The notes under the pieces were generated by a model. It saw nothing but the letters and a program-made list of their open reading frames with translations, was not told where the DNA came from and made no database searches. From the IMG/VR virus record IMGVR_UViG_2913177423_000003, positions 1 to 4,562 of that record: DNA of 4,562 nucleotides. One strand, 5' to 3'. Positions within the stretch are counted from its first letter, which is position 1. Each line of letters starts with the position of its first letter. This stretch comes from a virus (taxonomy: Duplodnaviria > Heunggongvirae > Uroviricota > Caudoviricetes). Both the position numbers and the translations under genes were made by a program. This document shows, piece after piece, positions 1 to 4,562 of the stretch.

Positions 1-114
1 AAAGATCCCCCTGTTGAGCACAACTAACACCTGGAGCGCACGCCAGACTTTCAACGGTGGGATCACCGGGACGCTGACGGGGAACGCCGACACCGCGACG
101 AAATTAAAAACAGC
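1..114. repeat. Left inverted repeat (IR-L); coding, specifies the conserved junction peptide of the fibre
   Basis: Hand alignment with the reverse complement of 4449-4562: mismatches only at positions 22, 23, 37, 58 and 91. Identity decays after about position 114. The outer 21 bp are identical. Confidence 0.9.
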
Positions 115-2020
115 ACGGAAGATTAATAACGTGCTGTTTGACGGTTCTAAAGATATTTCGCTGACGCCTGCGAACCTTGACGTCACCAGCCTGACGTTTA
201 TGAAAAACAACGGCGAAATGCCGCTTGATGCCGACCTGAACACATTTGGTCCCGTTAAGGATTATGTGGGTGTCTGGTATAAATCCACATCCTCCAACGC
301 AACACTGGAGAAACATTTCCCGGAAGACGGTGCCGTAGGTGTTCTTGAGGTATTCAATGGCGGTAATTTTGCAGGAATGCAGCGTTACACCACCAGGACT
401 GGCAATGTTTATATGCGCAACCTTTCTGGTTCCTGGAATGGCTCTGACGGCCCGTGGAGTTACTGGCGACAGATTCAGTCAGCAACACGCTCTCTGAGTA
501 CAACCATTGACCTGAATACGCTCGGAGGCGCAGAGCATCTTGGTTTATGGCGAAACAGTAGCGGCTCTATCGCTTCATTTGACCGCAACTATCCGGAAGA
601 AGGGAGTTATGGTCAGGGACTCCTTGAAGTTCTTGAAGGTGGTGGGTACTCACGCACGCAACGCTACACGACCCGCCGAGGGAATGTATATGTTCGATGT
701 CTTTCTGCTACATGGAATGCAGAGAATCCACAGTGGGAACCGTGGTCAAGAGTGGGCCATCAGTCAGAGTGTCGTTATTACGAAGGGGATTTGAATGTTC
801 TAACCGACCCCGGCATTTACAGCGTTACAGGGAAGGCAACAAACGGTCCAATGCAGGATACCGCTGGAGCAACACTGCTTGGGATACTGGAAGTAATCAG
901 ACGTTTTGATGGTGTGTCTGTTTGGCAGCGTTACACAACCACAGGGAAAGCAGAAACCACACAGGGGCGTACTTTTGAGCGCGTCTACGCCGGGAGCAAA
1001 TGGACCGAATGGCGAGAAGTATATAACTCCTTTTCGTTGCCCCTGAATCTGGGTATTGGCGGCGCAGTGGCAAAACTCACCAGTCTGGACTGGCAGACCT
1101 ACGATTTTGTGCCGGGCAGTCTGATAACCGTTCGGCTTGATAACATGACCAACATTCCCGACGGTATGGACTGGGGCGTCATTGATGGCAACCTGATAAA
1201 CATCGCAGTTGGTCCGAGTGATGATTCCGGTACGGGGCGCTCAATGAAGGTATGGCGCAGCACTGTAAGTAAAGCGAACTACCGTTTCTTCATGGTGCGC
1301 ATCTCAGGAAATCCGGGAAGCCGAACGATCACGACAAGACGAGTGCCGATAATTGACGAAGCCCAGACATGGGCAGCGAAGCAAACCTTCAGTGCTGGCC
1401 TTTCTGGTGAGCTGTCCGGCAATGCTGCTACAGCTACAAAGCTGAAAACCGCGCGAAACATTAATGGTGTCAAATTTGATGGTTCCAGCGATATAAATAT
1501 TAATACGCTGGTATCCCGGAATCGCGTCACTGCATTAAGCGGGAATGCAAAGGGGACGCCTGGTATCCAGATGTATGAGGCATATAACAATGGCTACCCT
1601 TACGCCTATGGCAATGTGCTTCATCTTACGGGTGTGTCCGCAGTTGGAGAAGGTGAGTTACTTATCGGCTGGAGCGGCACCAGTGGGGGATACGCGCCAG
1701 CATATATCCGTTCAAGGCGAGATACAGATGATGCTCAGTGGTCTGGATGGGCGCAAATTTATACAACAGCTCATAAACCCTCGGCAGGTGATATTGGCGC
1801 TTATACCGCCGCAGAATGTAATTCGCGTTTTATTACAGGTATTCGCTTAGGTGGTTTGTCATCCCTTCCAACGTGGAATGGTACTGGCTGGCATGACAGG
1901 TCAGGGCATGTTCTTACTGGTGTTGTCAATAGTAATACTGATGAATTAATTGATATCGCGCAGGCAAGACCTGTTCAGTATTGTATTAATGGCACATGGT
2001 ATAACGCGGGAAGTATTTAA
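2..2020 (+). CDS. Tail-fibre protein, variable C-terminal portion (alternative A); 5'-partial, continues upstream of the window
   Basis: The 668-aa ORF from the track stays open in frame to position 2 (aag atc ccc ctg before the TTG at 14), with no Shine-Dalgarno sequence before that TTG. It contains the tail-fibre repeat motif [17 protein letters not shown] twice (about aa 23 and 469) and three tandem units of about 90 aa with the core LEV-(13-14 aa)-QRYTT--GN-Y-R. Stop TAA at 2018-2020. Confidence 0.85.
221..1024 (+). repeat. Three tandem, diverged units of about 90 codons inside fibre alternative A
   Basis: Protein units about aa 70-160, 161-250 and 251-337. LEV cores at aa 111, 204 and 292, each followed by QRYTT then G-Y-R and W--W. 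Confidence 0.7.
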
Positions 2021-2022
2021 TT

Positions 2023-2550
2023 ATGATGCATTTAAAAAACATTAAAGAAGGCAATCCCAAGACCATTGAACAATATGAGTTAACCAAACGATTTAATATT
2101 GTCTGGTTATGGTCAGATGATGACAAAAACTGGTATGAGGAACAGAAAAACTTTCAGGATGATACTTTAAAAATGGCCTACGACGAGAACGGTATTATTC
2201 GTTGTATTGAGAAAGATGTGTCAATGATCAATCCTGATGGCTTGAGTGTTGTTGAGTTACCGAATATAACCGCCAACCGTCGCGCGGATATTTCTGGTAA
2301 CTGGCTGTTCAAAGATGGCACTGTAATCAAACGGATTTATACCCAAGATGAACTACAACAACAGGCGGAGTTACAAAAAAACACCTTGCTTTCAGAAGCT
2401 GAATTAGTCATTCAGCCGCTGGAACGCGCTATTAAGCTAAATATGGCTACTGATGATGAACGCGCCCGGCTGGAAGCATGGGAACGCTACAGTGTTCTGG
2501 TGAGTCGAGTAGATACCGAAAACCCTGAATGGCCTGATAAACCAGAATAA
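2023..2550 (+). CDS. Tail-fibre assembly chaperone (Mu U / P2 G-like family, as recalled)
   Basis: 175 aa starting MMHLKNI, with a GGGAAG Shine-Dalgarno-like sequence 9 nt upstream. It starts 2 nt after the fibre stop. The C-terminus ...[29 protein letters not shown] is the characteristic tail of tail-fibre assembly proteins. Stop TAA at 2548-2550. Confidence 0.85.
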
Positions 2551-2557
2551 TAATTAT

Positions 2558-2573
2558 GGCCCGATGTTGGGCC
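2558..2573. terminator. Candidate stem-loop in the spacer between the convergent chaperone genes
   Basis: GGCCC-gatgtt-GGGCC (5-bp GC stem, 6-nt loop) lies 8 nt after the + strand chaperone stop. Only TT follows, so it is weak as an intrinsic terminator. Confidence 0.2.
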
Positions 2574-2669
2574 TTCGAATGGTGGTTCTGGGACCAATAT
2601 CGCTTGTGGATTAATACCTTGATGCACCGGAGGTAGCAGATATATCCAGTGCACCATATATTGAATGGT

Positions 2670-3272
2670 CTACGCCTCTGGCAGTTCAGGCCAGAGGACA
2701 TCCGGCGCGGTGCTGGTATCTGTTACCGTCACCGCGTCAATGTAATCCAACACGATGTTTAGTCGGGTGGATTCCGTTTGCGTCAGCTTCCGCCCTGCCT
2801 GTAATTTCAATTGAATTAGACTGATAGAAGCCATTGCAGCATCAATCAATGACTGGCGCTGTGCTTCTGCCGCTTCTACTGCGGCATTGTGTTGTGCCTC
2901 GGTGTCTGTCACCCATTTCTCACCATCCCATTTATCATATGGCGTTAACGGGGCGATGGTGGTTGTATTTTCAGGATAATCCCCCGGTGCTGTGATTTCT
3001 TTTGATTCTCCTGTTTCGGTGCTATAAACGATTTCACCGCGATGGTCTGGCACATACTCCCATGAATTTAAATCTGCCGAACGGCAGATAGCATAACCCG
3101 CCTTATGTGTGCTAGGAGCATCTAAACAGGAATTGGCCGGAATGCCAACACCAACAGCAAGATATTCAGTTGATGCAGATATATATTCTAATGTTTCGCT
3201 ATCATAGTTATGAACGATAATATTTCCTGCCTGTACGGCAATAAGTTCATTATTCAATATCGCGTTATCCAT
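2670..3272 (-). CDS. Tail-fibre assembly protein (lambda Tfa-like type)
   Basis: 200 aa. GIPANSCLDAPS and SWEYVPDHRGEIVYSTETG resemble lambda Tfa GLPANSTDIAPP and SWHLVEDHRGKTVYDVASG (recalled from memory). The C-terminus TDTSTAPDVLWPELPEA resembles Tfa VDTSTAPDIEWPAVP. The ATG at 3270-3272 overlaps the stop of the upstream fibre ORF (TAATG). Stop TAG at 2670-2672. Confidence 0.85.
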   Translation of the reverse strand: MDNAILNNELIAVQAGNIIVHNYDSETLEYISASTEYLAVGVGIPANSCLDAPSTHKAGYAICRSADLNSWEYVPDHRGEIVYSTETGESKEITAPGDYPENTTTIAPLTPYDKWDGEKWVTDTEAQHNAAVEAAEAQRQSLIDAAMASISLIQLKLQAGRKLTQTESTRLNIVLDYIDAVTVTDTSTAPDVLWPELPEA

Positions 3273-4561
3273 TATGCAGCTCTCACAATATAATTAAATG
3301 ATGTATTACGTGGTCGCATAGATATCCATACGCTATTAAAATTATCTTCTGCTGTTCTTTGTGTGCCTGTAACTGAGTTATCAGCCGAAGCTGGAACATA
3401 GTCACTGTTATCCCCGGCTTTAGCACCAGAAGGCATTCCGATTATTTGCGCTTTATCAGCGGAAGCAAATGCTATACCAACCTTGACAGAAGTAGCCACG
3501 TCAACCCCGTAATAATCCTGTAACGCTGTGCGAATAAGTGTTGCATCCTGATTACTGAGTAGTGATCGTCCACTGTCTACACCACGTCCATCATCCCAAC
3601 CACGGATAAACTCACCGCGTAAATCAGGTAATTTACCGGTAGTGTATACCTTGGCAAGCTGAGGGTATTTTTCCATATCAAAGGCAGCGCCATTGCATTT
3701 CAGCCAGCCTGTCGGAGGCGTGGCGGAAGGCCACGGCAAGGGGACGCCTACGGGAATGATTTCGATATTTGCGCTACCGTTAAATGATACGCCGCTGATT
3801 GCGCGAGCGGTTTGCAACTTTGTAGCCGTTGCTGCATTACCTGTCGTATTTTGATTTCCCGTAGTGTTAACGCCAGGCAAGTTAATATTTGCAGTCCCAT
3901 TGAATGACACGCCTCCTATAGTTCTTGCGGTTTGCAATTTTGTTGCAGACGCCGCATTTCCTGTAGTGTTCTGGTTTCCTGTTGTATTTACACCAGGAAT
4001 CGAATCTTTAGATGTATAAATTTGCGCCCATTCTGACCACTCGGCAGTCGTTACATCTCGTCGAGAACGGATATAACTTGGAGCATGTGCACCACTTGTG
4101 CCACTCCAGCCAATCAGGAGTTCCCCCTCTCCGACAGAGGTTGCACCTTTAAGATGAACAACGTTTCCGTATGTAGTGGGATAACCATTATTGCTAACTT
4201 CATACATCTGGATACCCGCTGATGCTCCCTGTGTGGCACCAGTTAAGGCGGTAACACGCCCGCGACCAACGAGAGTATTGATACTAATATTTTTGGTTCC
4301 ATCAAATGACACACCATTAATACTGCGCGCTGTTGCCAGTTTTGTCGCGGTTGCCGCATTACCAGTGGTGTTCTGGTTTCCTGCGGTGTTTACACCAGGG
4401 AGGTTGATGTTTGTAGAGCCATCAAATGCCACACCACCGATCGTGCGGGCTGTTTTTAATTTCGTCGCGGTATCGGCGTTCCCCGTCAGCGTCCCGGTGA
4501 TCCCGCCGTTGAAAGTCTGGCGTGCACTCCAGGTGTTAGCCGTGCTCAACAGGGGGATCTT
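3272..4561 (-). CDS. Tail-fibre protein, alternative variable C-terminal portion (alternative B); 5'-partial, continues beyond the window end
   Basis: The 425-aa ORF stays open in frame to 4561. It starts with the same junction peptide as alternative A, followed by four copies of the fibre repeat (about aa 23, 63, 198, 240). A collar-type receptor-binding motif follows: TGWLKCNGAAFDMEKYPQLAKVY...GKLPDLRGEFIRGWDDGRGVDSGR (about aa 268-345). Confidence 0.85.
   Translation of the reverse strand, partial: KIPLLSTANTWSARQTFNGGITGTLTGNADTATKLKTARTIGGVAFDGSTNINLPGVNTAGNQNTTGNAATATKLATARSINGVSFDGTKNISINTLVGRGRVTALTGATQGASAGIQMYEVSNNGYPTTYGNVVHLKGATSVGEGELLIGWSGTSGAHAPSYIRSRRDVTTAEWSEWAQIYTSKDSIPGVNTTGNQNTTGNAASATKLQTARTIGGVSFNGTANINLPGVNTTGNQNTTGNAATATKLQTARAISGVSFNGSANIEIIPVGVPLPWPSATPPTGWLKCNGAAFDMEKYPQLAKVYTTGKLPDLRGEFIRGWDDGRGVDSGRSLLSNQDATLIRTALQDYYGVDVATSVKVGIAFASADKAQIIGMPSGAKAGDNSDYVPASADNSVTGTQRTAEDNFNSVWISMRPRNTSFNYIVRAA
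3821..4402 (-). repeat. Tail-fibre repeat units with a recurring PGVNT(A/T)GNQNTTGNA linker inside fibre alternative B
   Basis: Three linker copies on the - strand at about 4343-4399, 3941-3997 and 3821-3877. Hand comparison of two copies gave about 80 percent nucleotide identity; the longest exact shared run seen was about 16 nt. Confidence 0.7.
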
Positions 4562-4562
4562 T
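4449..4562. repeat. Right inverted repeat (IR-R), partner of 1-114
   Basis: Same alignment as IR-L. Read on the - strand it encodes [39 protein letters not shown], against [39 protein letters not shown] at the left end. Confidence 0.9.

Follow-up and report, generated by a model that had tools for sequence, protein, structure and literature searches.

What does a short contig represent when nearly the same coding sequence lies inverted at both of its ends, and where would recombination take place if these repeats bounded an invertible segment? Both questions are raised by the 4562-bp stretch of viral DNA analysed here (henceforth the window). Since the window is a whole contig, has the Sv-U / U'-Sv' layout of phage P1 and carries terminal arms whose homology is in register with the crossovers of phages P1, P7 and D6, it very probably represents the cargo of a Cin-type invertible tail-fibre C segment from a P1-like phage-plasmid, assembled as a separate contig. 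Membership in the P1-type C segment rests on the homology of arms and cargo, the cix crossover sites, the recombinase gene and the enhancer all being absent from the window.

Gene content of the window

Exact matches of two chaperone proteins identified the window as the entire draft contig RHJQ01000048.1 (4562 bp, assembly GCA_004211995.1), and its edges are therefore contig ends. The layout is of the P1 type, with two opposed tail-fibre C-terminal cassettes, each followed by its own assembly chaperone. On the plus strand, Sv, the variable C-terminal part of the tail-fibre protein S (2-2020, 672 codons), is open from position 2 and has no start codon of its own; it is followed by a U-type chaperone of 175 aa (2023-2550, Pfam Caudo_TAP E = 1.8e-35), placed like P1 gene U. 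On the minus strand, the alternative variable part Sv' (3272-4561, 429 codons), likewise devoid of a start codon and running off the contig end, contains a Collar domain (Pfam Collar E = 3e-15) and four fibre-repeat motifs, and its U'-type chaperone of 200 aa (2670-3272, Caudo_TAP E = 5e-31, plus Caudo_TAP_N) sits in the place of P1 gene U'. By analogy with P1, Sv would be expressed only as a fusion to the constant part Sc across the crossover site. A scan of the central region for terminators and promoters gave nothing bearing on the terminal repeat.

The terminal inverted repeat

When the window was aligned, with no gaps allowed, to its reverse complement, positions 1-114 matched 4449-4562 at 109 of 114 sites (95.6%), far beyond chance. 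The differences fall exactly where the first-pass annotation had listed them, at 22, 23, 37, 58 and 91, and positions 1-21 are indeed identical between the arms. Its reading of the codons also holds: in the frame starting at position 2, the changes at 22, 37, 58 and 91 are silent third-position changes (in T, S, G and D codons), and position 23 is a first codon position (ACT, Thr, vs GCT, Ala). Given that about 25% of all single-base changes there would be silent, at least four silent changes among five has a probability of 0.017. The left arm (1-114, plus strand) encodes the first 38 residues of Sv and has 93-95% identity to arms of the P1 family; the right arm (4449-4562, minus strand) encodes the same 38 residues at the start of Sv', with Ala in place of Thr at residue 8. 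Both are open to the contig end.

Past position 114, the bases at 115-156 retain 59.5% identity, and farther in only about 26%, the background level, is left; a repeat search returned the same pair as 1-156 against 4407-4562, at 86%. This decaying tail (115-156, plus strand, with its partner at 4407-4448) is the remainder of the first 'GNAxTATKLxTAR-I-GV-FDG' fibre-repeat motif, and constitutes the mosaic joint where the two cassettes diverge. Arm matches in Escherichia coli mostly end at 114-127.

Crossover sites predicted beyond the contig ends

In P1 the constant 5' part of the fibre gene S (Sc) lies outside the segment and the cin gene just past its other end. The serine invertase Cin recombines two inverted cix sites of 26 bp each by conservative exchange at their central 2 bp. 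Strand exchange at this 2-bp core fuses Sc to either Sv or Sv' and thereby switches host range (PMC6906374; bioRxiv 10.1101/2022.07.24.501295). As reference we took the GenBank annotation of P1 (L006), in which the cixR crossover is at 6119/6120, the C segment at 6120-10375 and cixL at 10366-10385; cin is annotated on the other strand at 10380-10940, with the Fis-dependent recombinational enhancer (10851-10922) inside it. P7 and D6 are annotated in the same way, cixL and cixR of D6 by homology.

We compared the window with 33 arms from P1, P7, D6, P1-like plasmids and IMG/VR contigs, comprising about 25 P1-like phage-plasmid loci besides P1, P7 and D6. The arms are in register with the annotated crossovers of these three phages and have 93-99% identity over window positions 1-114. 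The 26-mer reads TTATCCAATACC-TT-GGTTTAAGAGAA at the Sc-side cix and CAATCCTAAACC-TT-GGTTTAAGAGAA at the cin-side one. In all 33 arms a 17-nt spacer (CTCGGnACnAGnGGnGA) separates the inner half-site GGTTTAAGAGAA from AAAGATCCCCCTGTTGAGCAC, the 21 bases with which the window opens. The sequence at which the window starts (AAAGATCCCC...) thus always begins 29 nt inward of the TT at the centre of the 26-bp cix, i.e. with 17 nt between the end of cix and the base matching window position 1, and with the TT itself 29-30 nt outside (33/33). The reading frame across the junction is the same as in P1 (..VIQYLGLRELGTSGEKIPLLST..). One of the cix sites is directly adjoined by cin, with a gap of 4-10 nt in P1, P7, D6, L009-L013 and L093.

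Given this fixed 29-nt offset in the relatives, the cix sites are predicted 18-43 bp beyond both ends of the window (-43 to -18). The crossover site had earlier been suggested to lie at or across the window edge; the offset in the 33 arms bears out a position outside the window, but one wholly beyond the edge and not across it. The Sc-side flank of GTGCTCAACAGGGGGATCTTT (or its complement) would be expected to read TCACCGCT(G/T)GTACCGAGTTCTCTTAAACC-AA-GGTATTGGATAA, and the cin-side flank ...AA-GGTTTAGGATTG, followed by cin. The window itself was scanned for the AAACC-NN-GGTTT core, which had previously been reported as missing from it, and nothing rose above chance. No match to the P1 cix 26-mer with up to seven mismatches and none to the Din consensus with up to three was found within the window, and the best paired half-sites within it scored 16/24, equal to shuffled sequence.

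Under this arrangement Sc would be joined to one of two partners, Sv (accompanied by chaperone U) or Sv' (accompanied by U'). The 114-bp repeat would be the coding sequence for the first 38 residues past the junction, which both cassettes would need in order to fit Sc, and would not be required for strand exchange. All five mismatches, 51-120 nt inside the crossover, would travel with their own cassette upon inversion. In this isolate, too, cix and cin are predicted, and the segment probably inverts.

Relatives of the window and orientation of the segment

A P1-like phage-plasmid contig of 93.5 kb (L093, ERZ1311710 NODE_155) is collinear with the whole window, with identities by block of 84%, 74%, 86% and 96%, and encodes the same two chaperones, of 175 and 200 aa. 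Its cin occupies 7393-7953, with the centre of the cin-side cix at 7957-7958; the Sc-side cix is at the other end, and both cix cores lie exactly 29 nt outside the positions equivalent to the window ends. Here cin adjoins the Sv' arm: the block with 96% identity corresponds to window 3582-4562 and abuts the cin-side cix and cin, and the best full-length relative of Sv' (81% identity) is also found in this contig, beside cin. Homologues of the Sv arm are fused to Sc in L001, L002, L091 and L092 and located next to cin in L011 and L012, so both orientations exist among the relatives. As for the orientation in this isolate, the symmetric contig break gives only a hint of both. The neighbouring recombinase was a serine resolvase/invertase in all relatives.

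The arm was found in 114 of 5426 complete E. coli genomes, and 142 of its 147 places there were on plasmids; among the matches listed, the plasmids carrying it were mostly of 90-100 kb. Over window positions 1-1485, Sv has 95.5% identity to the S gene of P1-like plasmids, in which it is fused to Sc. A megablast of the whole window against complete E. coli genomes, INPHARED phages and PLSDB plasmids returned no record covering at least 80% of it, which places the source element outside these collections, and 41-mers of either arm had no exact match in IMG/VR. Exact matches to the chaperones were restricted to the window contig and one Logan contig of 1891 nt (L004, SRR8068136_463), which is 100% identical to window 1217-3107; the run SRR8068136 is probably the read set behind the assembly of the window. 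Searches with the Sv and Sv' proteins had as best matches P0017 (97% identity, 74% coverage), P0001 (90%, 93%) and P0123 (81%, 99%); the ceiling in the large protein database was 90% identity over 93% coverage for Sv and 81% over 99% for Sv'. No near-identical Sc-fused Sv or Sv' protein from another assembly was found in these searches, which recovered the relatives L091, L092 and L093, none of them the same element.

One relative has a larger repertoire. In L009 (NZ_CP124376.1, 493-7723) an extra, N-terminally truncated fibre cassette and its chaperone lie between the usual two, i.e. some members of the family hold more than two cassettes.

Selection and possible exchange in the arms

Among 29 distinct arms, the variable columns within positions 1-114 numbered 8, 5 and 21 at codon positions 1, 2 and 3 respectively (of 38 each), and 15 of the 29 are identical in the peptide that they encode for the first 48 residues, counted from the inner half of cix. 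Within single elements (P7, D6, L009, L011, L012, L093 and the window) the paired arms have 92-97% identity, differing at 3-9 of 114 sites, mostly silent third positions; the arms of L093 differ at eight sites, of which 22 and 58 are common to the differing sites of the window. The right arm of the window is 99.1% identical to an L011 arm, 97.4% to a D6 arm and only 95.6% to the left arm of the window itself, and being nearer to the arms of other elements than to its partner argues against frequent homogenisation within the element. The third-position bias over the 29 arms and the affinities of the right arm support the earlier proposal that the repeats are held by selection on the peptide and not by frequent gene conversion, and the 114-nt arm is a family-wide conserved coding block, apparently under purifying selection on the junction peptide.

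That the arms are alike mainly through concerted evolution, by gene conversion or RecA-dependent exchange between the inverted copies, we consider distinctly improbable. The silent differences retained within seven elements, the window included, are difficult to reconcile with it, as is the greater closeness of the right arm to other elements, and in most elements the similarity ends sharply at about position 114, at the mosaic joint. There are nonetheless traces of such processes. P1 has arms that are 100% identical for 300 nt, with about 96% identity at 301-600, and the same is found in L018, an identity that exceeds the need of coding constraint; parts of the family, e.g. P1, do show homogenisation or recent duplication. 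Position 22 (A or G) is tied to opposite cassettes in the window and in L093, as would fit exchange within the repeat, but position 58 keeps the same association of arm and cargo in both. Occasional exchange between arms may thus take place.

The contig ends

The outer boundary of the repeat is the end of a draft contig, not a biological boundary. Outwards from the first site at which the arms differ, the contig runs on for 21 nt and ends, and the block of 21 identical outer bases is plausibly the signature of an assembly break. The arms would be identical from position 21 out to the crossover, i.e. over at least 50 bp, and such an identical outer stretch would collapse to one node of the assembly graph, which the cargo contig would overlap by about one k-mer. 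An independent contig of 4180 nt that also consists of the C segment only (L030, the whole of IMG/VR UViG_2737471842_000002) has the same signature, with a perfect terminal inverted repeat of exactly 20 nt that stops where its arms first differ. The assembler resolved the exact inverted repeat of 32 nt at 59-90, which implies that it drew on read information, and a 21-nt overlap misfits a simple k=21 graph; the outer block may have been left collapsed by the presence of both segment orientations in the culture.

The GATC that had been noted at positions 4-7 is present in both arms. It is incidental coding sequence, part of the AAG ATC codons (Lys-Ile), and is kept in 31 of the 33 arms, the other two having AAG CTC; nothing suggests a function for it.

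A contig of 5293 nt (L018, IMG/VR UViG_3300012281_000016) presents another kind of end. Its terminal inverted repeat is perfect over more than 800 nt, both ends carry cin fragments and a cin-side cix half-site, and the contig looks like a fold-back misassembly across a P1-type C segment.

For annotation, which is where the practical value lies, short draft contigs with short perfect terminal inverted repeats and two opposed fibre cassettes would be read as the cargo of invertible segments, with the recombinase and crossover sites located on neighbouring contigs. Where the repeat ends in a contig of this kind is set by the assembler and not by biology.

Mosaic structure and internal repeats of the cassettes

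The first 176 nt of the window match P1-like elements only, and positions 177-1465 of Sv have 80-92% identity to the H tail-fibre genes of P2-like phages (Peduovirus and Yersinia phages), which defines a sharp mosaic joint between an adapter of P1 type and a fibre of P2 type. The pairing of the two cassettes is a new mosaic, and may define a new host-range pair for a P1-like phage-plasmid.

Several internal repeats were apparent. Units of 80-115 nt encoding the GNAxTATKLxTAR-I-GV-F-G motif are located at 3765-3844, 3885-3964, 4287-4366 and 4407-4486 on the minus strand and at 1397-1516 on the plus strand; the motif corresponds to Phage_fiber_2 in relatives, and the outermost unit forms the inner end of the terminal repeat. 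In Sv a short motif occurs three times (379-395, 658-674 and 925-941, spaced by 279 and 267 nt) and a 'QRYTT..GNVY.R' peptide recurs, which suggests that the receptor-binding part may consist of three tandem domains of about 90 aa each. A second inverted repeat of 204 nt and 71% identity (1562-1765, plus strand, and 4013-4216, minus strand) encodes a '...GYP..YGNV.HL.G....' domain common to both cassettes.

In two P1/D6-like plasmids (L091, 9245-11770, and L001, 5210-7735) the S gene consists of window 1-1485 (95.5% identity) joined to the reverse complement of about 3841-2658, so that the 200-aa chaperone is now co-oriented, and one cix site is left. These genes look as if the inverted fibre-repeat motifs at about 1485 and 3841 had undergone exchange and the remainder had then been lost. 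One could go further and regard the fibre-repeat motifs as secondary, recombinase-independent points of exchange, with the arms merely the outermost of a set of recombination-prone coding repeats and these hybrids as products, a generalisation that we hold to be improbable.

Alternative origins of the segment

A frozen remnant, i.e. a locus of P1 C-segment ancestry that in this isolate has lost cin or one cix and no longer inverts, is unlikely, yet such loci do exist. In published P1-like plasmids, cin is often truncated or the C segment altered (PMC6906374). Among the nearest relatives of the Sv half, L001 has an IS3 insertion and a single cix site, L002 also has one cix site, and L091 has one cix site together with a recombinase gene in the opposite orientation. 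In the window, however, the two cassettes, their chaperones and the arms are all intact and run open to its ends, the break is symmetrical at the two arms, as expected if both ends join one collapsed repeat, and the collinear relative L093 has the full system. It is barely credible that the terminal repeat is purely an artefact of assembly, a fold-back or a chimeric contig. The ends of the window were certainly set by the assembler, as it is a whole draft contig, and fold-back contigs occur at this locus, L018 being an example. The two arms, however, differ at five sites and run into two different intact cassettes, and the same paired arms occur in complete plasmid and phage genomes, which refutes the repeat itself as an artefact and leaves only its 21-nt outer boundary as artefactual.

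Some observations are reminiscent of more elaborate switches, either a multiple-inversion system with internal crossover sites, such as Min of p15B, or a tyrosine-recombinase shufflon. The fibre-repeat motif occurs six times and in both orientations, L009 has more than two fibre cassettes, and the S genes of L091 and L001 resemble the product of an exchange between inverted motifs. Such a system is nevertheless very improbable here: the window has no internal cix-like or quasi-cix 26-mer (the paired half-site and consensus scans described above), no set of at least three internal crossover sites like that of Min or an Rci shufflon and no short, multi-copy sfx-like repeats, and the serine recombinase beside the segment in all relatives speaks against a shufflon.

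Comparison with known invertible systems

The closeness to P1 is evident in the gene order Sv-U / U'-Sv', in arms that are 93-96% identical to those of P1 over window positions 1-114, and in the start of the window 29 nt inside the annotated cixR crossover. The segment to which the window belongs is predicted at about 4620 bp, compared with 4256 bp in P1. The arms of P1 extend over about 0.6 kb and are nearly perfect, whereas in the window, as in P7, similarity is lost at about 114-156 bp. Distally, too, both cassettes differ from those of P1 and are other mosaics: Sv is P2-H-like and has three internal repeats, and Sv' has a Collar domain. The closest known systems also include L093 and elements of the D6, RCS47 and pAVS0578-B types. 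Even the P1-like L093 is collinear with the window but reaches only 74-96% identity, depending on the block.

The Din family of serine invertases includes Gin, acting on the G segment of Mu, Pin on the P segment of e14, Hin on the H segment of Salmonella and Min of p15B. The cargo of Mu, e14 and p15B likewise consists of alternative fibre C-termini, and the GenBank record of P1 notes its similarities to Mu and p15B. By homology, the system of the window would belong to the same class, with 26-bp sites made of 12-bp half-sites around a 2-bp core and the invertase beside the segment. Mu differs in having repeats of only 34 bp, and the arm sequence of the window is specifically of the P1 type; Min has six crossover sites, in contrast to none found inside the window. 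Descriptions of the switch mechanism and of the conserved arms go back to the 1980s. The system of the window, with its predicted crossover sites and conserved arms, is already known and ordinary; what is new here is only the combination of cargo.
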